Shown here: positions 468-64,000 of the stretch, in pieces
Layout: every line of letters begins with the position of its first letter
Numbering within the stretch: the stretch's first letter is position 1
DNA from: Promethearchaeota archaeon
GTDB lineage: Archaea > Asgardarchaeota > Lokiarchaeia > Sigyniarchaeales > SOKP01
Direction: 5' to 3'
DNA: 64,000 bases
Assembly: GCA_048941625.1 (NCBI GenBank)
Contig: JBHLNK010000006.1
Location: forward strand, 1,652-65,651
The notes under the pieces: generated by a model
Database searches by the model: none
What the model saw: the letters and a program-made list of their open reading frames with translations, nothing else
What the model was told of the DNA's origin: nothing
Made by a program: the position numbers and the translations under genes

Positions 468-950
468 ATGAAGTTTAAAAAAAAGTTGAAGAAGATTGAA
501 TGGAAGCAAAGTATTATCAAGAGTATAATCTATAGATCAATAACTTTATTATTAGGTACATTAACTGCATATCTAATTACAGGAAGTGTAGCCATAGCAA
601 CAGGAACAGCACTATTAACTGAAGCGGTTCAATCTGTGAATTATTTTATATATGAATTAACGTGGAGTAACATTTCTAGAAGAAAACTGGAAAAGAAGAT
701 AATTGAAAAAATTAAACGAAAACAAATTAACTTAAAATTAGATTATTCTTCAATAAAAGAATTAGCTTATCAATTATCTCAAATTGATACATTTGTTCCA
801 AAATTATATCTATCTACTATGCAAATTTTCAATAATATGTTGGAAAACGAAGAAATAGAGGAGATACATGATGATATTGTTAAATATAAAGCATATTTTG
901 AATCCGTTCATTCAGACAGAAAACTTTTCTTTCCAAAAGAAGAAGATTAG
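468..950 (+). CDS. Small membrane protein, DUF2061-like N-terminal two-helix domain plus charged C-terminal tail
   Basis: N-terminus KSIIYRSITLLLGTLTAYLITGS...LTEAVQSVNYFIYELTWS resembles the DUF2061 hairpin pattern. The remainder is hydrophilic and helical. Confidence 0.4.
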   Translation: MKFKKKLKKIEWKQSIIKSIIYRSITLLLGTLTAYLITGSVAIATGTALLTEAVQSVNYFIYELTWSNISRRKLEKKIIEKIKRKQINLKLDYSSIKELAYQLSQIDTFVPKLYLSTMQIFNNMLENEEIEEIHDDIVKYKAYFESVHSDRKLFFPKEED

Positions 951-51463: not shown

Positions 51464-52612
51464 TTAAATATTTTGTCCTAATTCTAAGGTTTTATCCCTT
51501 AGTTGGGAATTATCACAGATTTTACAATTTGGTGCGATTGTTGCTTTTTCTAAGATAACATTATCTCCAATTTCACAGTTATTGCAGATAATACTCTCTT
51601 TTATTATACAACCAGAACCTATTTTAATTTCATCCCAAATAACACTTTTCTCAATTACAGTATCCTCTCCGATACTCACATTACTTCCTATCGTAGTTAA
51701 TTCTTTAATTTTAACTCGATTTGCTAGTTTTACATACTCACCGAAGCATGTTGGCTTTTCAATAGTGATATTTTGCCCCGAGTTTATTATGCCCATTACA
51801 TAAACTCCATCATATTCAACCCCATTAGGCAAAATCGGCCATGCATACTTTCGCAACAAATCCCAATTTGCCCACAAATAAGTAGTAGCATTTCCCGCAT
51901 CCATCCAATAATAATTTTCGACAAATCCATATAAATCATATTTGTTTTCTAAGAGATATGGAAAGACTTCGCCTCCAAAATCCATTAATCCTGTTTCATG
52001 TAAAATATCCCCAATTTCATTTCTAAAACAGTATATACCTGTATTTGCCACATTAGTATGAAGGAAGAGATCTTCCTTTTGAGACATACTACTTAAATAT
52101 AATTCCATTGGTGCTGGTTTTTCTAAGAAAAGATAAATTTTTCTTTTTTTATCTAATAAAACAACACCATACTGAGAAATATGACTTTCTACAGTTTTCA
52201 TAGATATTGTAGCTAAACCTCCTTTTTCAGAATGAAATTCCATAAAACGCTTCATAGGTAGATTGGTAACTATGTCAGCCATTGAAACAACAATTTTATC
52301 TGAGTCTATGTTATCCGTTAATAATCTATACGCGTCTGCCGTACCCTTACTGTCTTGAATTTCACATTCTAATTCTACATCTCCCAACTTATCCGCAGTC
52401 CAAGTTTTATTAATGTAATCTTTCATTTCCTTACCCATATATGCTAAAGCGAGTATTATATGCTTAATATCAGCATATATTAAGTGTGCTATAGCATAAT
52501 CGACCATTGGAACATTTGTGACTTTCACAAGTGGTTTTGGAAATAATGAAGTCAAAGGCATCAAGCGTTTACCTATTCCACCAGCTAAGATTATCGCAGA
52601 CCAATCTCTCAC
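51464..52612 (-). CDS. Sugar-1-phosphate nucleotidyltransferase (NDP-sugar pyrophosphorylase) with a C-terminal left-handed beta-helix
   Basis: ILAGGIGKRLMPLTSLFPKPLV signature. C-terminal hexapeptide repeats (IGSNVSIGEDTVIEKSVIWDEIKIGSGCIIKESII...). Confidence 0.85.
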   Translation of the reverse strand: MRDWSAIILAGGIGKRLMPLTSLFPKPLVKVTNVPMVDYAIAHLIYADIKHIILALAYMGKEMKDYINKTWTADKLGDVELECEIQDSKGTADAYRLLTDNIDSDKIVVSMADIVTNLPMKRFMEFHSEKGGLATISMKTVESHISQYGVVLLDKKRKIYLFLEKPAPMELYLSSMSQKEDLFLHTNVANTGIYCFRNEIGDILHETGLMDFGGEVFPYLLENKYDLYGFVENYYWMDAGNATTYLWANWDLLRKYAWPILPNGVEYDGVYVMGIINSGQNITIEKPTCFGEYVKLANRVKIKELTTIGSNVSIGEDTVIEKSVIWDEIKIGSGCIIKESIICNNCEIGDNVILEKATIAPNCKICDNSQLRDKTLELGQNI

Positions 52613-52714
52613 TATTTTATCCTCAAGGAAATTATCAAATATATAACGATTTTAGTAGATATAAATCTAATTTAATTTGAATTATAAAGGTTATGTCTTT
52701 AGAACCTATAATAT

Positions 52715-53944
52715 CTATTCAATATATTTTTCTAAGGCAGATCTTATTTCTTTTGCTGCGATGTGGGGTAATTTCCTAGCTACGCGCATATCATCAGCCA
52801 TTTCAGCACCTCCTATTATTTCATGAGGAATAATATCAGCAAACATATGAAAATCTGCATCATAGCCATAAGGGCAACAATTAAATAATATATTGCGATT
52901 TATATCAATTTTTAAATCGTCTAAACTCTGAAAAATCATTTTTAAACATTTTGCTAAATCTTCGATCTGATTAATTTTTAACTGAGAAAATCTCCTTAAA
53001 TGTTCGTTTGGATGAAATCGTATATGGTAATTTCTTACTGGACTACCAGTATTATAGAAAGTCCAGAAATCTGTTTCTAATATTATTCTATCTGTTCCTC
53101 CATGAGTAGTTTGACATAAGTGACAATTATTCCCCATTTCTTTGAATGCTTCGAGATATCCTTCTAATCTACTCCCATGACCATCCATATTTAAATCAAT
53201 ATAAACCTGACTATGAATTCTGGGTTGGGAACCCCCTACTTTAGTTCCTATATTAAAAAATGGCATAACAGGGATATCATAATAGTCCTTGTTTATAGCC
53301 TCTTCAATACAGTAAAGAATAGCTGCTTTCATAGAAAGAAAAATTCCCGATAATACATTCTCTGGAATCAAATTAAAACACAAAGAAGGATAAAAATCTC
53401 GGGAAATAGTTACTAAATTAATTCCTTTTGATAATTTCAAATGAGGAGGTAAATTCTCTGAAATATCTTTTTCTATATCTGGATCAATAACTCTCGCCAT
53501 TGATGGATATTTATTTATTAAAGTTATTGCTTTGGTTATGTTAGGTAACCTATCAATCCGATGTGGTGTCTCTGAAAAAGGATTATCAAGCCTATTTTCA
53601 TCCTGCGTAATAATTATAGTAAATCCATTTCCTAAAGGCATTCCCCAATCATCACAGACTATTTTTCCTTCAATTACAGATGAAAACACATCCTTAAACT
53701 TTCCAACTATTTTCTTTGAACAATCATATAATTGCTTTTCATCTTCTATTGCTTTAAATCCTGAAGGTCTTTCTCCTCTGATGGGACTAATATAAGAATA
53801 ATGTCCGTAATACCTTTTCTTTTTTGTTAAACCAAAACCTTCAGTATGAATACTAACTGTTGATAAAGGATCCCATCTCTTAATTGGAACATCATAAGTG
53901 GTTTTAGTTTCAAAATTTTCTTTATTAATAATTCCCCACTCCAT
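52715..53944 (-). CDS. GalT/HIT-superfamily nucleotidyltransferase-like protein (tentative)
   Basis: RGERP near the N-terminus, GGSQPRIHSQVY resembling the GalT HxHxQ-type active-site strand, and CHLCQ as a possible zinc site. Sugar-nucleotide gene context. Confidence 0.4.
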   Translation of the reverse strand: MEWGIINKENFETKTTYDVPIKRWDPLSTVSIHTEGFGLTKKKRYYGHYSYISPIRGERPSGFKAIEDEKQLYDCSKKIVGKFKDVFSSVIEGKIVCDDWGMPLGNGFTIIITQDENRLDNPFSETPHRIDRLPNITKAITLINKYPSMARVIDPDIEKDISENLPPHLKLSKGINLVTISRDFYPSLCFNLIPENVLSGIFLSMKAAILYCIEEAINKDYYDIPVMPFFNIGTKVGGSQPRIHSQVYIDLNMDGHGSRLEGYLEAFKEMGNNCHLCQTTHGGTDRIILETDFWTFYNTGSPVRNYHIRFHPNEHLRRFSQLKINQIEDLAKCLKMIFQSLDDLKIDINRNILFNCCPYGYDADFHMFADIIPHEIIGGAEMADDMRVARKLPHIAAKEIRSALEKYIE

Positions 53945-56130: not shown

Positions 56131-57576
56131 TTGTCAGACACTGTTTTAAAAAAGCTTTTTCAAGTATTTGTAAATAAATTAGAGTTTGATCCAGCTGACT
56201 ACTTAATTTCTAGCAAAGAACAAGAACTATCAAATTTTCAGAAAGATTTCATTGAAAAAGCAACAAGTATTTTAAAAGAAAATATTGTTGGAGAAATTAA
56301 ATCGTTTGGAGGAAATGTAAAAGCAAATGAGGAGAAATTCAAAGAACTCGAGAAACGAGCAAATGAGGAATTGGAAAATGAAGAATATGATGATATTAAG
56401 AAAGAGTTAAAAAATTATGTTAAAAAGTTAAAGGAATTGATCGAGAAAACTTGTTTAGCGATAATACCCGTAAAAGAAATGCCTTGGGTTGACGTTTTAG
56501 TTCGAAGTGTCCCTCGTATATTATTTGATAAGAAACTAGAATTTTTAGAAAATGCTATTGCATATTATGGTGAGATAAAATGTGTTATTTCAAGACCTAC
56601 TATTTTTGGGAAAATGAAAAATGACAAACCGTTATTTGCTCCTGTAATGGGGAATCTCGACTTAGGAGGTTTTAAACTTGATGATTCTGTAAAAGAACCT
56701 AAATCTACAGTTTATTCTTATGTCACAGCTATTATTAATTCTTTTGATTCTACTATGACAAGAAATCATCTTGCAAAATATCATGAAGGTTATCAACGAC
56801 ATGGTGACCCTATTTGTGATTACTTAATGAAACATGATGAATTGAAAAATGCAATGGAAAGAATTACATCAGGTCTTGAATCAGAACGTATTAATTCAGA
56901 TATTGCAATATATAGTATAGCAATACCTTTACCTTCTGATAAGACCTCATTAGTAATAGTGGTAGATGAAGGTAAGGATCCAAACAAATTTTCAAGGTGT
57001 TTTGAAGCTCTTTTAAGATTTTCAGCTGAATGTTGTAATGTCCCGACTCAAGCACCCCAAGCACCTACACAAGGGGCAAGCCAGCAATCTGGAGCAATCA
57101 GAACTCCAGGAGGTCAACAATTAAAAGCGTGGACAGCTGAAGAATTAGCAGAAGAAGCACAAAAAAGGATGGAAGCTCAGCCTGAAATGCCAACTTGGTC
57201 AGAAGAAGAATTAGCTAAATTCTCTGAAGAGAGAGGATCAGGGTTACCCCCTGGAATGGAAGTTTGGACGGAAGAAGAGCTTACCGAATTAGCTAGGAAA
57301 CGACAAGGAGGTTTAGACATTCCTGAATGGAAGGTGGATGAGACTATGAAGGAATGTGTTAAATGCGGTTATAGTTTAAGGCCTGGATGGAGTAAATGCC
57401 CAATATGCGAGACACTAGTTGATGCAAAACCAGAAAAAGAATTAGTTGAAAAGAAAAATGGAAAAACTACTGAAGAATCAGTGTCAGAACTTAATGAATT
57501 ACCAAAGGAAGAAAAAACTGAAAAAGTAGAAGAGGAAAGCTTGGATACTAAAAATGAAAACAATAAAGAAGAATAA
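56131..57576 (+). CDS. Orphan multidomain protein: N-terminal helical region, globular middle, P/Q/A-rich linker, four ~22-aa Trp-acidic repeats, zinc ribbon, acidic tail
   Basis: PTQAPQAPTQGASQQSGAIRTPGGQQ linker. Repeats are WTAEELAEEA, WSEEELAKFS, WTEEELTELA and WKVDETMKEC (Trp codons at 57130, 57196, 57265, 57328). CVKCGYSLRPGWSKCPICE follows. TTG start. Confidence 0.5.
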   Translation: MSDTVLKKLFQVFVNKLEFDPADYLISSKEQELSNFQKDFIEKATSILKENIVGEIKSFGGNVKANEEKFKELEKRANEELENEEYDDIKKELKNYVKKLKELIEKTCLAIIPVKEMPWVDVLVRSVPRILFDKKLEFLENAIAYYGEIKCVISRPTIFGKMKNDKPLFAPVMGNLDLGGFKLDDSVKEPKSTVYSYVTAIINSFDSTMTRNHLAKYHEGYQRHGDPICDYLMKHDELKNAMERITSGLESERINSDIAIYSIAIPLPSDKTSLVIVVDEGKDPNKFSRCFEALLRFSAECCNVPTQAPQAPTQGASQQSGAIRTPGGQQLKAWTAEELAEEAQKRMEAQPEMPTWSEEELAKFSEERGSGLPPGMEVWTEEELTELARKRQGGLDIPEWKVDETMKECVKCGYSLRPGWSKCPICETLVDAKPEKELVEKKNGKTTEESVSELNELPKEEKTEKVEEESLDTKNENNKEE

Positions 57577-57756
57577 TAAATATATCAATTTCAATAACTA
57601 TATTCGTAGTTTTCTTAAAAATTATTACAGCAATTTATTAGTTCATATAAAATAAACCGAAAACTTTAAAAAGATATAAAAACAGCCAGATCCCAAACGT
57701 TTTTTAAGTTAATTTTATTTTTAACCTTATAAGAATTAGGAATTTTATGCTTTAAG

Positions 57757-58755
57757 TTGTTACATAACATCTTTTTATTTACAGGAAAGAAATATTGTGA
57801 TTTAGAAGATCTTAATATTTATTGTTATCCTAATGAAGTAATTGATATTAATCAAAAATTAATTGTTAATAAGATAATTAAAGAGCATGACAAAGAGGAA
57901 CTAACCAGTCAGAAAGATTCATTTCAATTTAAGATTGATGAACCCATTGCTCAAATCATTGGTGAGTTAAATATCTATTCTGTCTGTGTTAACGAAAAAC
58001 TTATTATTGGTTTAGTCTTTGAAGAAGATGATAATCCTTATGATTACATGGAAATTTTTAAGGAATTATTAAATGAACTGCTTAATAATGGTGAGGAATA
58101 TTCTTTTGATGATGAAATGGAGATTGAAAATTTTCTAATTTCAATGTTTATTGATATTCGAAGATTTGGAGATGAGGTTATTGAAAAAACTGCTGAAATT
58201 GAATATTATTATCAAAAAGAAACTTTTTTCAAAATATTTATTTTTGGAGTGGATGAAACAGGGAAATCAAGCTTAGTTAGAAGATTAAAAACAGGTGAGT
58301 TTAATGAGAATTATTTTACACCTACTCGCAAATTTAATATCGAATATCTCCCAGTAAAAGAAAAAGGCTTGCTAGCTTTATGGGATATGCCTGGTCAAAA
58401 AGCTTTTAGATCAAAATGGTTATTAGGTCTTCAGGATTCTAACCTTGTCATTTATATGATTGATATTTCCAACCAACGAAGATTTGATGAAGCTAAAAAC
58501 GAGTTCTGGAATGTAATTAATAACGAAGAATTAAAGGGAATTCCATTACTTATTTTAGGAAATAAAATTGATTTAGTTAAAACATCAAAAGAAAAAAATG
58601 AATTACAACTTCAAAACTTAAAGACTGAGCTTTATAAATTTTATAATTTTGAAAATATAAATAATAGGCAATGGGAATTTTTATTTACTTCTGTTAAAAC
58701 CAATTTCAATATCGATAATTTAATTGAAAAAGTTTTTGATTTAATTTCTTCATAA
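57757..58755 (+). CDS. Arf-family small GTPase with a ~160-aa N-terminal longin/roadblock-like alpha/beta domain
   Basis: G domain: IFIFGVDETGKSSL (Arf GxDxxGK[ST]), FTPTRKFNIEYL (Arf switch I, compare IPTIGFNVE), LWDMPGQKAFRSKW (DxxGQ..R..W), LILGNKIDL (NKxD). The N-terminal fold assignment rests only on the secondary-structure-like pattern (...KLIIGLVFEEDDNPYDYMEIFKELLNELL). Confidence 0.75.
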   Translation: MLHNIFLFTGKKYCDLEDLNIYCYPNEVIDINQKLIVNKIIKEHDKEELTSQKDSFQFKIDEPIAQIIGELNIYSVCVNEKLIIGLVFEEDDNPYDYMEIFKELLNELLNNGEEYSFDDEMEIENFLISMFIDIRRFGDEVIEKTAEIEYYYQKETFFKIFIFGVDETGKSSLVRRLKTGEFNENYFTPTRKFNIEYLPVKEKGLLALWDMPGQKAFRSKWLLGLQDSNLVIYMIDISNQRRFDEAKNEFWNVINNEELKGIPLLILGNKIDLVKTSKEKNELQLQNLKTELYKFYNFENINNRQWEFLFTSVKTNFNIDNLIEKVFDLISS

Positions 58756-58907
58756 ATGGCAAGCATTTACAGCTCTTTTCTATAAGAAAATCCTAAACTA
58801 AATATATTCAGAGTTTTTTCATTAAATTTAAATATCTAGCTGTTTAAAATTCTATTATATAAAAAACCTAATTAATTTGTTTGATAAAATAGATTTAGGG
58901 GAAAATT

Positions 58908-59495
58908 ATGTCAAAACGACTTAAAAAAGAATTACAAGTGATGATTGAAGAGAAATTAGGTCATTTGTTTTTTGGTGATCAAAAGAAAGATTTGCGTTTA
59001 TTGATGTTAAGACCAATTGATTTAATTGAATTCTCGGAGTTTGCAGGAACTAATGCTGATGACATATTAGTCTGGGTAGGAAAAACTCTAGGGAGATCAT
59101 ATATGGATAAGTTCTTTTATAATAAAGACTGGAGTTCAGAAACACTGCTAACAAAAAAAGAAGTCATTCTTGGGAATCTTGAAGCCTTAGAACTCTGGGG
59201 ATTTGGTGAATTATCAGCACATTTCAAAAAAGATCACATTTTAATTAAGGTAACAGAATCTTTAGCTTCTGAAGAAACCGATAATATTATGGCGAAAAAC
59301 TTATGCTTACTCTATCAAGGAATCTTTGCTGGGATATTTGAAACTCTAAAAATTGATGTAGATGTTCAAGAAATTGAATGTGTTTTATTAGGTGGGAAAA
59401 ACTGTGTATTTAAATTTAGTCTTCTTGGAGAACAGTTAGAAGATGCGGTTGTAGATTCCGAAGAAACTGTCTCTGAGTTCTTGTCTACCCTTTAA
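58908..59495 (+). CDS. V4R-domain protein (4-vinyl reductase fold, related to TRAPP Bet3 family)
   Basis: LWGFGELSAHF...ILIKVTES...NLCLLYQGIFAGIFE...VQEIECVLLGGKNCVFKF matches the V4R pattern ending in E-x-C-x3-G-x2-C-x-F. Confidence 0.75.
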   Translation: MSKRLKKELQVMIEEKLGHLFFGDQKKDLRLLMLRPIDLIEFSEFAGTNADDILVWVGKTLGRSYMDKFFYNKDWSSETLLTKKEVILGNLEALELWGFGELSAHFKKDHILIKVTESLASEETDNIMAKNLCLLYQGIFAGIFETLKIDVDVQEIECVLLGGKNCVFKFSLLGEQLEDAVVDSEETVSEFLSTL

Positions 59496-60691: not shown

Positions 60692-63037
60692 ATGGAGAAA
60701 AGAGGAGCTAAGATAAAAATTGATGAATATAAAGGAGCTCTTGGAACGATCAAAGGATTCGAATTGACTACTGGTAAAGTTTCATTTGGAGACGAAACGG
60801 AATGGGAACCAATGGGACCACACCCGATGCCTCACATTCCAACTTTACGTAATTGGTTTTTCAAGTTAATGGAGAGATACAAACCATTTTATATGCCTAT
60901 TTGTGATATGTGCTGCCTATGTACCTATGGAAAATGTAATCTTTCCAAAGGTAGAACAGGGGCATGTGGAATCAATATGGAGACACAACAGAGTCGAATC
61001 GTAGAAATTGCTTGTTGTATAGGTGCTGCTTGTCATTCTGCTCATGGTGATCATCTACTACATTGGCTTAAAGAGAAGTACGGAAACGTCCCAATTAATT
61101 TTGGAAATAATATTGCTGTAGAAATGCCACACACACGATTAGTAGTAGGCATGAAACCTGAAACTTTAGAAGATTTAGAGACAGCTATGGAATGGGTTCA
61201 TTATACAATTACTCACTTACTTGCTTCAGGTCACACTGGCCAAGAAAGTTCATATTTAGATTATGAATCAAAAAGCTTTTTAGCAGGATTAGCGGATTCA
61301 GTAGGTATGGAAATTTCCGATGCAGTTCAAATAGCAGCATATGGATTTCCAATGGGAGATCCTAATGTTCCTATTGTCGAGTTAGGTATGGGGACACTTG
61401 ATACGAGTAAAGCAGTAGTTTTAATGATTGGTCATAATGTTGCCCCAGGAGTTGAACTAGTTGATTTCATTCGAGAAAAAGGAATAGATGATAAAGTTGA
61501 CGTGGGTGCGATTTGTTGTACTGCTCATGATTTAACAAGATATTATGATGGAGCCAAGATTGTAGGTTCAATGTCAAGACAGCTTCATGTTATACGGTCA
61601 GGAATCCCTGATGTCGTAATGGTCGATGAACAATGTGTAAATTTAAGATCATTTGAACAAGCTCAATTAATTGGTGCACCATTTATTGCAACAAATGAAA
61701 AAAATATGAGTGGTTTACCAGATAGAACCGCAGATCCAGTAGATGAAATTATAGAAGATTTAGTAAGTGGAAAAGAACCAGGTGTTCTAATATTAGATCC
61801 TATTAAAGCTGGAGAAGTTGCTGCACAAACAGCCATAAAAGTTAAACCAATTCGAAAAGCAAAGAGTGGAGTTCCTGATGAGCAAGGTTGTATTGATATG
61901 GCAATGAATTGTAATGGCTGTGGAAATTGCCAACGAAATTGTCCAAATGATCTACCTTTAGTAGAGGGTGTAAAATTGGTAAAAGATGGCGACTTTTCTT
62001 TATTAGGGAGTGTATTTGATGATTGTTTAGGTTGTGGACGATGTGAAGGAGATTGTATGAAAGGTGTATCACCTTTAACTTTACTACAGTATGCAGGGAG
62101 AGAGTATATTAGAAATGAAACTTACAACTGTCGAGCTGGACGTGGGCCAATTATGGATACTGAAATTAGAAATGTGGGTGCTCCAATTGTTTTAGGAGAA
62201 ATCCCTGGAATCGTTGCTATAATTGGATGTGCTAGTTATGCTCATGAGATTCAGGAATTATATAAAATGGCTGATGAATTTTTAACAAGAAATTATATTG
62301 TTGTAGTTTCTGGATGTGGAGCAATGGATATTGGACTTGTTAAGGATGAAGAAGGGAAGACTTTATATGATAGATTTCCTGGAGATTTTGATCGAGGTGG
62401 TTTAGTAAATGTAGGGAGTTGTGTAAGCAATCCTCATATTACAGGAGCCGCAATAAAGGTTGCTAATATCTTTGCTCGAAGACCTTTACGTGGCAATTTT
62501 GAAGAAATCGCTGATTATATCTTAAATAGAGTTGGTGCAGTCGGTGTAGCTTGGGGTGCAATGTCCCAAAAAGCTGCTAGTATAGCAAGTATGGCTAATG
62601 GAGTAGGAGTTCCGGCTGTATGTGGACCTCACGCCGCAGAATATAGAAGAATGTATATCGGACGTGCTGATGATGAGGAAGTTTGGAAAGTTTTTAATGC
62701 TCGAGATGGAAGTGCTGATCATTTAGTTGGTCCAGGTCCTGAACATCTTTTAACTACTGCAGAAAGTATTGAGCAAGCCATCTGTCTTGTTGCCAAGTTA
62801 TGTTTAAGGCCTGCAGATAACTCGAAAGGTCGGATGATAAAGCTTTCACACTGGATCGATCTTGAACGAAAATACAAAGGTGTCCAATTTCCTAATGATC
62901 TTGAAAAGTTTATTCGTGTTGAGGCCGATATTCCTATCAATATGAAAGATGAAATCCAAGAATACCTTAAAGAAAGAGGTTGGGAACCTAAAGAAATTGT
63001 AGATCCAACACTTTTGAAAAGGTTATGTCGAACCTAA
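60692..63037 (+). CDS. cdhA: CO dehydrogenase/acetyl-CoA synthase complex alpha subunit (archaeal CdhA-type Ni-CODH)
   Basis: N-terminal Cys cluster motifs (CDMCCLCTYGKCNL...GACGI), a two-ferredoxin insert (CNGCGNCQRNCPN; CLGCGRCEGDC), and C-cluster regions (GCASYAH, SGCGAMD, GSCVSNPH). Confidence 0.95.
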   Translation: MEKRGAKIKIDEYKGALGTIKGFELTTGKVSFGDETEWEPMGPHPMPHIPTLRNWFFKLMERYKPFYMPICDMCCLCTYGKCNLSKGRTGACGINMETQQSRIVEIACCIGAACHSAHGDHLLHWLKEKYGNVPINFGNNIAVEMPHTRLVVGMKPETLEDLETAMEWVHYTITHLLASGHTGQESSYLDYESKSFLAGLADSVGMEISDAVQIAAYGFPMGDPNVPIVELGMGTLDTSKAVVLMIGHNVAPGVELVDFIREKGIDDKVDVGAICCTAHDLTRYYDGAKIVGSMSRQLHVIRSGIPDVVMVDEQCVNLRSFEQAQLIGAPFIATNEKNMSGLPDRTADPVDEIIEDLVSGKEPGVLILDPIKAGEVAAQTAIKVKPIRKAKSGVPDEQGCIDMAMNCNGCGNCQRNCPNDLPLVEGVKLVKDGDFSLLGSVFDDCLGCGRCEGDCMKGVSPLTLLQYAGREYIRNETYNCRAGRGPIMDTEIRNVGAPIVLGEIPGIVAIIGCASYAHEIQELYKMADEFLTRNYIVVVSGCGAMDIGLVKDEEGKTLYDRFPGDFDRGGLVNVGSCVSNPHITGAAIKVANIFARRPLRGNFEEIADYILNRVGAVGVAWGAMSQKAASIASMANGVGVPAVCGPHAAEYRRMYIGRADDEEVWKVFNARDGSADHLVGPGPEHLLTTAESIEQAICLVAKLCLRPADNSKGRMIKLSHWIDLERKYKGVQFPNDLEKFIRVEADIPINMKDEIQEYLKERGWEPKEIVDPTLLKRLCRT

Positions 63038-63146: not shown

Positions 63147-63359
63147 ATGGATAAAAAAGATAAGGATATTTTAAAATTGGCTAAGCTTTGTAAACATTGG
63201 GCTGATCATAATGACTCACATAAAGAAAGCTTTTTAAAGTGGCTTAATATTGCAAAAGAAAAGGGATTTGAATCAATAGTAGATCATTTAAATAATGCAA
63301 TACAGATGCTAGATAAATGTAATGAGTATTTACTTAAAGCAAATAAAGAATTAGAGTAG
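63147..63359 (+). CDS. Small helical His/Cys-containing protein, function unknown
   Basis: 70-aa ORF with GTGA 7 nt upstream of the ATG. Contains CKHWADHNDSH and DKCNEY. Confidence 0.35.
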   Translation: MDKKDKDILKLAKLCKHWADHNDSHKESFLKWLNIAKEKGFESIVDHLNNAIQMLDKCNEYLLKANKELE

Positions 63360-63363
63360 AGTG

Positions 63364-64000
63364 TTATAAAAAGAGATTAATCAATGGAAGTAGTTGTTCT
63401 TTAAAGTAATCGATTTTACCTTTTAACAATTCCGGATTTTGAGAAAGAATCCATAAATATACAGGAATTTGTAATTCCGAATATTCAAATAACTTTTCTC
63501 CTTGGATAGTAAATCCATTAAGAGGTAAATCTAATCTTATAGATTTTTCCCTTATTAAACCAATCGAATTATAGAAATTAGACAATGTTTGCAGTAAGAG
63601 AGCGGTATTATTTACCAACATTTCATCAGTATCAGATTTTGTATAATTTCCAAAAATCAACCCATCCATTGAGACTAAACTTGCAGCTTTTGCCTCAACT
63701 TGTGTCGTAAATTCTTCAAGGATATGTTCGATTATTTCAGAGGTGTCTGATACTTTCTTTAATGCTATACTAAACATTTGCATTATTGTTTCTCTTGTAA
63801 AAACTGTTGTATCACAATAATCAGCTGTAAATTCTTCGAACTCATCAGCAATACTATTAAATTTATTCTTTATACTAGTAACATTTTGTTGCCATTGAAG
63901 TGTTTTGCGAATGTCTTGATCACTCTTACTTAATACAATTAATATTTTAGGCTCTTCTTTTAACTCTCGGAAAATCTTCAAGACTTCCCTAAAATAATTA
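63364..64000 (-). CDS. Rag/Gtr-like GTPase with a C-terminal roadblock/LC7 domain (5' part outside the window)
   Basis: The frame is open upstream of the TTG at 63979-63981 through to base 64000 (NYFREVLKIF...). ILIVLSKSD is at the G4 position and TTVFTRETIMQMFSIALKKV at the G5/last-helix position. A roadblock-like domain follows (AKAASLVSMDGLIFGNY...LDLPLNGFTIQGEKLF...YLWILS). Confidence 0.6.
   Translation of the reverse strand, partial: NYFREVLKIFRELKEEPKILIVLSKSDQDIRKTLQWQQNVTSIKNKFNSIADEFEEFTADYCDTTVFTRETIMQMFSIALKKVSDTSEIIEHILEEFTTQVEAKAASLVSMDGLIFGNYTKSDTDEMLVNNTALLLQTLSNFYNSIGLIREKSIRLDLPLNGFTIQGEKLFEYSELQIPVYLWILSQNPELLKGKIDYFKEQLLPLINLFL

Follow-up and report, generated by a model that had tools for sequence, protein, structure and literature searches.

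The locus considered here raises the question of whether an archaeal relative of the Arf GTPases is encoded next to its own partners, or whether the genes that flank it have stayed in place by descent only. It lies within a stretch of 64,000 nucleotides (nt) of a lokiarchaeal genome (contig JBHLNK010000006.1 of assembly GCA_048941625.1, positions 1,652 to 65,651 of the forward strand), referred to below as the window, whose G+C content is ~29% and whose genes match those of Asgard archaea of the lokiarchaeal type. A first-pass annotation, made by a model from the sequence alone, had described three consecutive plus-strand genes separated by 180 and 152 nt, and the open reading frame (ORF) coordinates of the window agree with that description:

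56131-57576, plus strand: ORF1, 481 amino acids (aa), TTG start with GGGAAAG 4 nt upstream; a conserved protein of unknown fold.
57577-57756: spacer between ORF1 and ORF2, 180 nt.
57757-58755, plus strand: ORF2, 332 aa, TTG start; a longin-type domain followed by an Arf-related (ArfR) GTPase domain.
58756-58907: spacer between ORF2 and ORF3, 152 nt.
58908-59495, plus strand: ORF3, 195 aa, ATG start; a stand-alone V4R-domain protein.

The reading that we favor, with a probability of about one-half, is that the products of these genes work together as a small-GTPase switch and its partners. It is the conservation of the neighborhood that carries this reading. The synteny sample consisted of one genome per species; 122 relatives were found, and the best 80 (with ORF2 identities of 49-75%) were kept. 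Among the loci with room, i.e., those whose sequence extends far enough on the relevant side, ORF1 precedes ORF2 on the same strand in all 76 and the V4R gene follows ORF2 in 72 of 75; of the 71 species-level loci that have such room on both sides, 69 show the complete trio. The synteny across related genomes that the first-pass annotation had named as a check was borne out, also in a divergent locus (L090), and the arrangement is more than chance. We take the gene count of the Asgard archaeon MK-D1 to be roughly 3,900. With the 74 small-GTPase genes of this organism, any gene would have a ~4% chance of adjoining a GTPase gene, so that adjacency in a single genome proves little and it is the recurrence that carries weight.

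The distribution of the breakpoints also argues for a functional link. The ORF1-ORF2 spacer has a median length of 176 nt (75 of 77 loci fall between 106 and 248 nt; the outliers measure 355 and 1325 nt) and the ORF2-V4R spacer one of 145 nt (range, 77-199 nt), whereas the outer junctions span 108-3704 nt between ORF1 and the ribbon-helix-helix (RHH) protein gene upstream and 177-3105 nt, with 3 inversions, between the V4R gene and cdhA, the downstream gene for the alpha subunit of carbon monoxide dehydrogenase/acetyl-coenzyme A synthase (CODH/ACS). Indels and inversions gather at both outer junctions; within the trio there are one 1325-nt insertion and three losses of the V4R gene, and the ORF2-V4R junction is never interrupted where V4R is present. 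The trio is kept in L090 (ORF2 identity, 49%), which retains ORF1 (42%), V4R (59%), and cdhA amid other neighbors that differ on both sides. The ORF2-V4R pair is the part of the trio that persists furthest: in an even more divergent locus, L092 (ORF2 identity, 44%), V4R, cdhA, a DUF8180 gene, and a Rag-like GTPase gene are all retained.

The central gene of the trio, ORF2, encodes two domains:

57757-58179, plus strand: ORF2 residues 1-141, longin-type domain according to the AlphaFold2 (AF2) model.
58225-58755, plus strand: ORF2 residues 157-332 and the stop codon, ArfR GTPase domain.

The Arf-like nature of the GTPase, previously recognized from its motifs, is well supported. The Pfam Arf model matches residues 153-328 with an E value of 5e-31 (107.9 bits against a cut-off of 22.3), and the motifs quoted earlier are found at residues 164-172 (GVDETGKSS), 188-196 (TPTRKFNIE), 209-221 (WDMPGQKAFRSKW), and 269-272 (NKID). 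Across 40 homologues, there is no variation at residues G164, G169, K170, T190, W209-D210-x-P212-G213-Q214, N269, K270, and D272. ORF2 thus combines the profile match and intact G1 to G5 motifs with the WDxxGQ...R..W signature of the Arf family, including WDMPGQ with Gln214 and the switch-I Thr190. The solved structures closest to it, in sequence as well as in fold, are those of Arl8A/B and Arl3; next come the Asgard ArfRs (PDB entries 8OUK, 8OUL, 8OUM, and 8OUN) and Arf1. Database searches returned 438 matches, of which the best 120 cover at least 95% of the query at 61-92% identity. The placement of ORF2 among the ArfRs was taken from the published classification of its orthologues and homologues: Table S3 of Vargova et al. 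(bioRxiv 10.1101/2024.02.28.582541; later Nat Microbiol 2025) marks as "ArfR, tree" the proteins TKJ24248.1 (Loki_b32), which corresponds to locus L007 and is 73% identical to ORF2, KKK44255.1 (Lokiarch_19980 of Lokiarchaeum GC14_75), and WP_147662730.1 of MK-D1. GC14_75 has Lokiarch_19980 as its single ArfR, a protein that had earlier been discarded as too divergent (10.1101/2024.02.28.582541); in the literature searched, it is mentioned only in that paper. The GTPase encoded by ORF2 belongs to the Arf family and, within it, to the ArfR group.

What ORF2 lacks is the N-terminal amphipathic helix of Arf, which docks on the interswitch in the GDP-bound form and binds membranes in the GTP-bound form, and in place of which residues 1-141 form the longin-type domain; in the AF2 model, the G domain is preceded only by a low-confidence linker helix (residues 146-154, predicted local distance difference test [pLDDT] score about 43). 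ORF2 is therefore an ArfR by descent and not a canonical membrane-anchoring Arf. Its TTG start codon (57757-57759) is shared by 77 of 80 species loci and by L090; since the first residues already belong to longin strand 1, an alternative start is impossible, and the conserved weak start may limit translation.

For the N-terminal domain, described earlier as "longin/roadblock-like," the first half of that description stands and the second does not. In the AF2 model of ORF2 (pLDDT 73; about 82-86 within the N-terminal elements), DSSP assigns strands at residues 2-9 and 20-24, a helix at 34-44, strands at 64-68, 71-78, and 82-88, and helices at 94-110 and 120-141, i.e., the longin order b-b-a-b-b-b-a-a with two C-terminal helices and no N-terminal one. 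Because of this order and the missing N-terminal helix, the modeled domain is of the longin type and not of the roadblock type. Residues 1-152 matched no Pfam family; a profile of 13 such N-terminal domains found no longin family in Pfam or among PDB sequences at E values up to 10, its matches to CtpB protease, CorA, and RnlB being noise; and no sequence-profile match was obtained to Longin, Clat_adaptor_s, Sybindin, Sedlin_N, or SRX. The longin assignment therefore comes from the predicted structure. A Foldseek search with the full-length model was not informative on this part, as GTPases fill the top 50 matches. The longin-type domain was found in 21 representatives among 1.84 billion proteins, always ahead of the same kind of GTPase. 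Invariant in this domain are Y24-P25, G85, DNPYDY (92-97), and FIDxRR (131-136); within residues 1-30, which contain neither Arg nor Gly-Pro and hence lack the feature of the longin domains of GTPase-activating proteins (the FLCN/SMCR8/NPRL2 class, PMC12290439), the invariant positions are I5, F6, Y24, and P25.

The fusion of longin and Arf-like domains was already on record. The MK-D1 homologue WP_147662730.1, which aligns with ORF2 over 319 residues spanning both domains (39% identity), was labeled "LG," for longin plus GTPase, on the basis of AF2 models (Tran et al. 2024, Suppl. Fig. 6b, PMC10933270), a label that agrees with our reading of the N terminus. Longin domains are among the N-termini of Asgard Arfs (Zhu et al. 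2025, PMC11914678), and longin fusions to Rag-family GTPase domains were reported by Liu et al. (2020/21; bioRxiv 10.1101/2020.10.19.343400). ArfRs with extra domains were deliberately excluded by Vargova et al. (10.1101/2024.02.28.582541).

ORF3 is a V4R protein, as had been suggested: Pfam V4R (PF02830) scores 35 bits against a cut-off of 31 and matches 23 of 23 members of the ORF3 family. The protein also matches MetOD1 and, as its best NCBIfam match, the V4R (C-terminal) part of MsvR. In the family alignment, neither C133 nor C158 varies, and conservation at C166 is 90% or higher. The proposed kinship with Bet3 and TRAPP survives at the superfamily level only, because ORF3 passes the V4R threshold and not the TRAPP/Bet3 one: TRAPP (PF04051) gave weak sub-threshold matches in 5 of 23 family members, with a best E value of 0.012. 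Searches of PDB sequences, Thor-TRAPPC3 and PoxR included, retrieved no match to ORF3 even with the family profile at E values up to 10. The solved V4R/TRAPPC3 structures from Thorarchaeota are zinc-binding, TRAPPC3-like dimers with internal cavities and have been read as probable ligand binders (Tran et al., PMC10933270).

In six species, a gene for a 184-aa Ras/Rab-like GTPase (Pfam Ras, E about 1e-40) directly follows the V4R gene, on the same strand in five of them, so that GTPase genes stand on either side of V4R:

L071 8863-9414, L072, L073, L079, and L082 4963-5514, plus strand: Ras-like insert.
L036 8832-9386, minus strand: Ras-like insert.

ORF1, the third member of the trio, had been called an orphan, a label that its 388 homologues (the best 120 of them at 61-79% identity) contradict, even though their annotation never goes beyond "zinc ribbon." Its regions are as follows:

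56131-57039, plus strand: residues 1-303, conserved globular region (from the alignment and AF2 secondary structure).
57040-57126, plus strand: residues 304-332, P/Q/A-rich linker of varying length (gapped columns in the alignment).
57127-57342, plus strand: residues 333-404, four Trp-acidic units (W334, W356, W379, and W400).
57346-57414, plus strand: residues 406-428, CxxC-x10-CxxC zinc ribbon (409-426), followed by an acidic tail up to residue 481.

The linker, the four Trp-acidic repeats, and the zinc ribbon had all been noted before and are upheld by the model and by an alignment of 36 homologues. Residues 304-336 are modeled as disordered (pLDDT below 50), and W334, W356, W379, and W400, each of which opens an acidic helix or unit, are invariant; the first three units are short helices of the type W-[TS]-x-E-E-L...[KR]-R, modeled at residues 336-348, 358-367, and 381-391. 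The zinc ribbon of the window protein matches Pfam Zn_ribbon_3 under the Pfam cut-off (E value, 2.3e-4), and zinc-ribbon models match 36 of 36 relatives, with a best E value of 4e-6. The globular region contains a helical hairpin (67-106), a beta-rich part (108-171), the invariant motif QRHGDPICD (222-230), and the motif CFE..L..SA (290-299); searches with residues 1-303 of Pfam, NCBIfam, and PDB sequences returned no match.

The AF2 model of ORF1 has a pLDDT of 58.8 and reaches values of 70-90 only in the region of about residues 20-160; a Foldseek search of the PDB gave no fold match for it (best E value, 0.26). Local matches of the C-terminus to RanBP2/NZF-type zinc fingers (probability about 0.9 over ~30 residues, E about 1) fit the Cys spacing, but the W-x-C and Asn positions are missing and Pfam gives generic zinc-ribbon families instead of zf-RanBP; these matches were therefore attributed to generic zinc-ribbon similarity. 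Profile searches of the PDB and Pfam yielded only zinc-ribbon and helical-bundle noise. Residues 256-332 (56896-57126), which comprise the P/Q linker and, ahead of it, a strand-strand-helix unit, give weak UFM1 profile matches (E about 1.6); in the stretch 286-332, the match pairs CFEALLRFSAECCNVP of ORF1 with FTAVLKFAAEEFKVP of UFM1, and as a non-significant one it was dropped. A 769-aa adaptin-mu-like protein and a 185-aa zinc-ribbon membrane protein, encoded near the MK-D1 and L. ossiferum homologues of ORF2, were considered as relatives of ORF1 and showed no relation to it.

The spacers of the trio contain conserved blocks of their own:

57657-57673, plus strand: first block of the ORF1-ORF2 spacer, CCGAAAACTTTAAAAAG, resembling a transcription factor B recognition element (BRE) and TATA box; columns at least 90% conserved in 76 species loci.
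57691-57726, plus strand: second BRE/TATA-like block of this spacer, TCCCAAACGTTTTTTAAG..TTTTATTTTTAACC; same conservation.
58820-58861, plus strand: A/T-rich promoter-like blocks of the ORF2-ORF3 spacer, CATTAAATTTAAATATCTAGC..TTTAAAATTCTATTATA; alignment of 75 species loci.
58898-58902, plus strand: GGGGA, Shine-Dalgarno-like element before ORF3; same alignment.

The second of the blocks before ORF2 (TCCCAAACGTTTTTTAAG..TTTTATT) persists, along with the TTG start, in L090. Although the encoded proteins fall to 50% identity, the spacer blocks are at least 90% conserved across 75-76 species, and they look like archaeal BRE/TATA promoter elements. Further copies of the ORF2 promoter-like motif were sought in the window, and the site proved to be single; an Rfam search of the spacers gave nothing above chance. 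A scan for bacterial sigma-70 promoters and terminators reported 18 promoter-like sites against 19.5 expected under a model that is not applicable to archaea.

If the three proteins do act together, a plausible sequence of events can be outlined, for which we infer the physical contacts and biochemical roles. The GTPase domain of ORF2 appears to be catalytically complete and would cycle between GTP and GDP; the longin domain that replaces the canonical membrane-binding amphipathic helix could serve as a built-in platform for dimerization or partner binding; and the V4R protein, from a superfamily whose members bind zinc and small ligands, would be the likeliest direct partner of the GTPase, either as a sensor or as a regulator of its nucleotide state. 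ORF1 may be a scaffold or an effector that docks via its repeated Trp-acidic helices. An independent domain-fusion link between the same three folds is provided by a heimdallarchaeal longin-TRAPPC3 fusion that exists beside longin-GTPase fusions (Tran et al., PMC10933270). Further support comes from the Ras-like GTPase gene directly after V4R on the same strand in five species and from the equal, fairly fast rates of evolution of the three proteins (a mean pairwise distance of 0.37, compared to 0.15 for CdhA).

Several observations weigh against such a partnership and suggest that the genes could be neighbors by descent only, i.e., three independently transcribed genes without a shared function, held together by the low level of rearrangement in a young clade, which we regard as possible but doubtful. 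The promoter-like blocks in both spacers, together with the Shine-Dalgarno-like element that ORF3 has for itself, point to three separate transcription units as the likely arrangement, in spacers that are long (140-180 nt), so that the linkage is probably a conserved neighborhood and not a strict operon. V4R is cleanly absent from three species (L015, L019, and L030, with no remnant found by tblastn), in which ORF2 is intact, cdhA is still in place, and ORF1 is intact too (L019 and L030). At L092, the position of ORF1 is taken by a gene for a 128-aa receiver-domain protein (481-867, plus strand), which hints at a link of that longin-ArfR to two-component signaling. The ORF2 homologues at 32-39% identity (among them those from MK-D1, L. 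ossiferum, and a 4.36-Mb metagenome-assembled genome [MAG] and CR_4-type sequences) have neither ORF1 nor V4R as a neighbor and are mostly encoded between the genes for phosphoenolpyruvate carboxykinase (PEPCK) and GrpE, and in MK-D1, GTPase genes as a rule do not share operons with longin, roadblock, or TRAPPC3 genes (Tran et al., PMC10933270). On these grounds, the "compact cassette" of the first-pass annotation was too strong a term. Moreover, synteny in the clade largely extends over a block of ~13 kb that reaches from the NTP-transferase gene as far as the one for the Rag-like GTPase, so that part of the conservation of the trio is simply shared descent, and cdhA identities remain at 85-89% in the "distant" loci too, which means that the sampled species are close. 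Nor does coevolution single out the trio: mirror-tree partial correlations within it are 0.51, 0.51, and 0.10, against 0.18-0.69 with unrelated neighbors. What descent by itself accounts for poorly is the clustering of indels and inversions at the outer junctions, the retention of the trio and cdhA in L090 amid genes that otherwise differ on either side, and the independent fusions that tie the same folds together.

Two more specific interpretations assign the V4R protein a different place in such a system. It could, together with the fused longin domain, form a TRAPP-like exchange factor for the Arf-type GTPase, with ORF1 as the effector, an idea encouraged by the conserved side-by-side encoding of a longin domain, a Bet3/V4R superfamily member, and a small GTPase, by the TRAPPC3-like dimers of the Thor proteins, and by the weak PF04051 matches in the ORF3 family. 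This we consider improbable: ORF3 passes the V4R, MetOD1, and MsvR-type models and not the TRAPP one, has no sequence match to Thor-TRAPPC3 or PoxR, belongs with Asgard proteins that Tran et al. read as probable ligand binders, and is dispensable at the locus in three species, and TRAPP acts on Rab, not on Arf. To a similar degree, it seems improbable that V4R is functionally tied to cdhA as a redox, carbon monoxide, or small-molecule sensor, the GTPase being either unrelated or a Rag-like metabolic relay. The window cdhA is a true equivalog and follows V4R in 59 loci and in L090 and L092, ORF3 finds its best NCBIfam match in the V4R part of MsvR, a redox regulator, two of its own cysteines are invariant, and at L092 a receiver-domain gene precedes the GTPase gene; still, about 26 of the 59 loci show an interruption or an inversion between V4R and cdhA, the ORF2-V4R junction is never interrupted when V4R is present, and cdhA stays put in the three V4R-less species. 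The boldest version of the partnership between the three proteins, again an improbable one, would have the Arf-family GTPase of this lineage controlled by a dimer of the V4R protein (Bet3 fold) on or through the fused longin domain, with ORF1 as a new kind of effector that docks via its Trp-acidic helices. Were it correct, the locus would encode an ancestral exchange or sensing platform made of longin and Bet3-superfamily parts that acts on an Arf-type and not a Rab-type GTPase, TRAPP-like regulatory architecture would predate the division of labor between Arf and Rab, and an Arf relative from archaea would, with the V4R protein, have its first concrete regulator.

In eukaryotes, membrane budding is initiated by GTPases of the Arf family. 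It was only in 2024-25 that the relatives of these GTPases in archaea, the ArfRs, were defined, and the literature searched contains no report of a regulator or an effector of any archaeal ArfR. According to published work, Asgard GTPase genes rarely adjoin candidate regulators, which makes their partners hard to guess; the trio locus is an exception, and the occurrence of a longin-fused ArfR beside the same V4R protein and ORF1 in about 70 species provides a short, testable list of candidates. The GTPase family, the ArfR class, the longin fusion, and the Asgard V4R proteins have all been published. The conserved adjacency of the three genes is apparently a previously unreported neighborhood of a small GTPase with platform-domain partners: no paper describing it was found in the literature searched, where V4R, GTPase, and Lokiarchaeota are combined only in Tran et al. 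(PMC10933270), and it is not among the conserved neighborhoods of eukaryotic signature proteins listed by Liu et al. (10.1101/2020.10.19.343400). The trio by itself is no proof of a trafficking-like system; because a longin domain stands where the membrane-binding helix would be, the action of this ArfR may not involve membranes at all.

The genes surrounding the trio include, upstream and on the opposite strand, those for a 2-hydroxyacid dehydrogenase, the RHH protein, a 409-aa protein, and a nucleoside triphosphate (NTP)-transferase, and, downstream, a DUF1295 gene on the minus strand followed by cdhA, the gene for a 70-aa DUF8180 protein, and the gene for a 404-aa Rag/Arf-like GTPase:

51464-53944, minus strand: NTP-transferase/hexapeptide gene and 409-aa conserved gene, a constant upstream pair in nearly all related loci.
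60692-63037, plus strand: cdhA (CODH/ACS alpha subunit), a true equivalog (TIGR00314, 1066 bits).
63147-63359, after cdhA: DUF8180 gene, 70 aa.
63364-64000, minus strand: C-terminal half (residues 194-404) of the Rag/Arf-like GTPase, cut by the window end.

The NTP-transferase and the 409-aa protein, for which only a weak GalT/HIT-like match was obtained (E about 1e-3), probably have a role in sugar-nucleotide metabolism. The cdhA gene of the window stands alone, with no further cdh genes adjoining it. Members of the Rag/Arf-like GTPase family are 402-404 aa long, with Gtr1/RagA and Arf Pfam matches in the middle of the protein and extra domains at both ends; the window protein, a constant neighbor within the clade, is 87% identical to the L006 copy and could belong to the longin-GTPase-roadblock proteins that have been described in MK-D1. 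In L. ossiferum and its relatives, a few genes upstream of the longin-ArfR homologue, there is a gene for a 660-770-aa protein (two such genes in L. ossiferum) with DUF11 repeats and a partial match to the adaptor-complex mu-subunit family PF00928 (42.8 bits against a cut-off of 31.6) that may reflect a shared beta-sandwich only:

L085 1538-3847, L087 1-713, and L088 1-1993, all minus strand: 660-770-aa protein.

The near-identical syntenic loci L004-L083 carry submitter names as diverse as Hod-, Hermod-, Odin-, Thor-, and Promethearchaeota, and it is probable that many such MAG names are erroneous or carry little information. "Promethearchaeota" denotes, in current NCBI usage, the whole Asgard phylum, and the family members placed by published phylogenomics are Lokiarchaeales (Vargova et al., 10.1101/2024.02.28.582541).

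Among the systems described so far, the GTPase domain of ORF2 is of the same kind as those of the Asgard ArfRs HodArfR1 and GerdArfR1 (8OUK, 8OUL, 8OUM, and 8OUN; Vargova et al.), but those characterized proteins consist of 160-220 aa and carry an N-terminal membrane-binding amphipathic helix where ORF2 has a longin domain of 141 aa. The two-domain architecture as such is that of the MK-D1 LG protein WP_147662730.1, with which ORF2 shares the start motif (ML-x-NIFL), NPYDY, and FIDxR, and of the longin-Arfs of Zhu et al.; the difference lies in the setting, as the LG genes of MK-D1 and L. ossiferum sit between those for PEPCK and GrpE without ORF1 or V4R, whereas the subfamily represented in the window (332-352 aa) is encoded within the trio. 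ORF3 shares the V4R Pfam domain with the stand-alone Asgard V4R/TRAPPC3-like proteins (Thor-TRAPPC3 and the V4R proteins of MK-D1) and with the V4R domains of PoxR and MsvR, but is too divergent for a PDB sequence match; it may likewise bind zinc or a ligand.

Two eukaryotic assemblies unite comparable parts. In the TRAPP core bound to Rab1/Ypt1, Bet3/TRAPPC3 subunits flank the longin pair Bet5/Trs23, so that longin domains, the Bet3/V4R superfamily, and a small GTPase come together as they do in the trio; the GTPase, however, is Rab-type there and Arf-type here, ORF3 stays under the TRAPP Pfam threshold, and a complex with exchange activity is, for the trio, a hypothesis. SRX of SR-alpha and SR-beta likewise pair a longin-type domain with an Arf-family GTPase, as two eukaryotic polypeptides of which SR-beta is membrane-anchored, and serve targeting by the signal recognition particle (SRP), to which nothing at the trio locus points. 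SR-beta nests within the Arf family (Vargova et al., 10.1101/2024.02.28.582541). The MglA/MglB pair and the Asgard neighborhood of a LAMTOR1-like protein, a Rab-like GTPase, and a DENN protein (Liu et al., 10.1101/2020.10.19.343400) also place a small-GTPase gene beside genes whose products are platforms or regulators of the roadblock/longin type; their partners are roadblock or DENN proteins, whereas in the lokiarchaeal trio they are a V4R protein and ORF1, and the GTPase is an ArfR.

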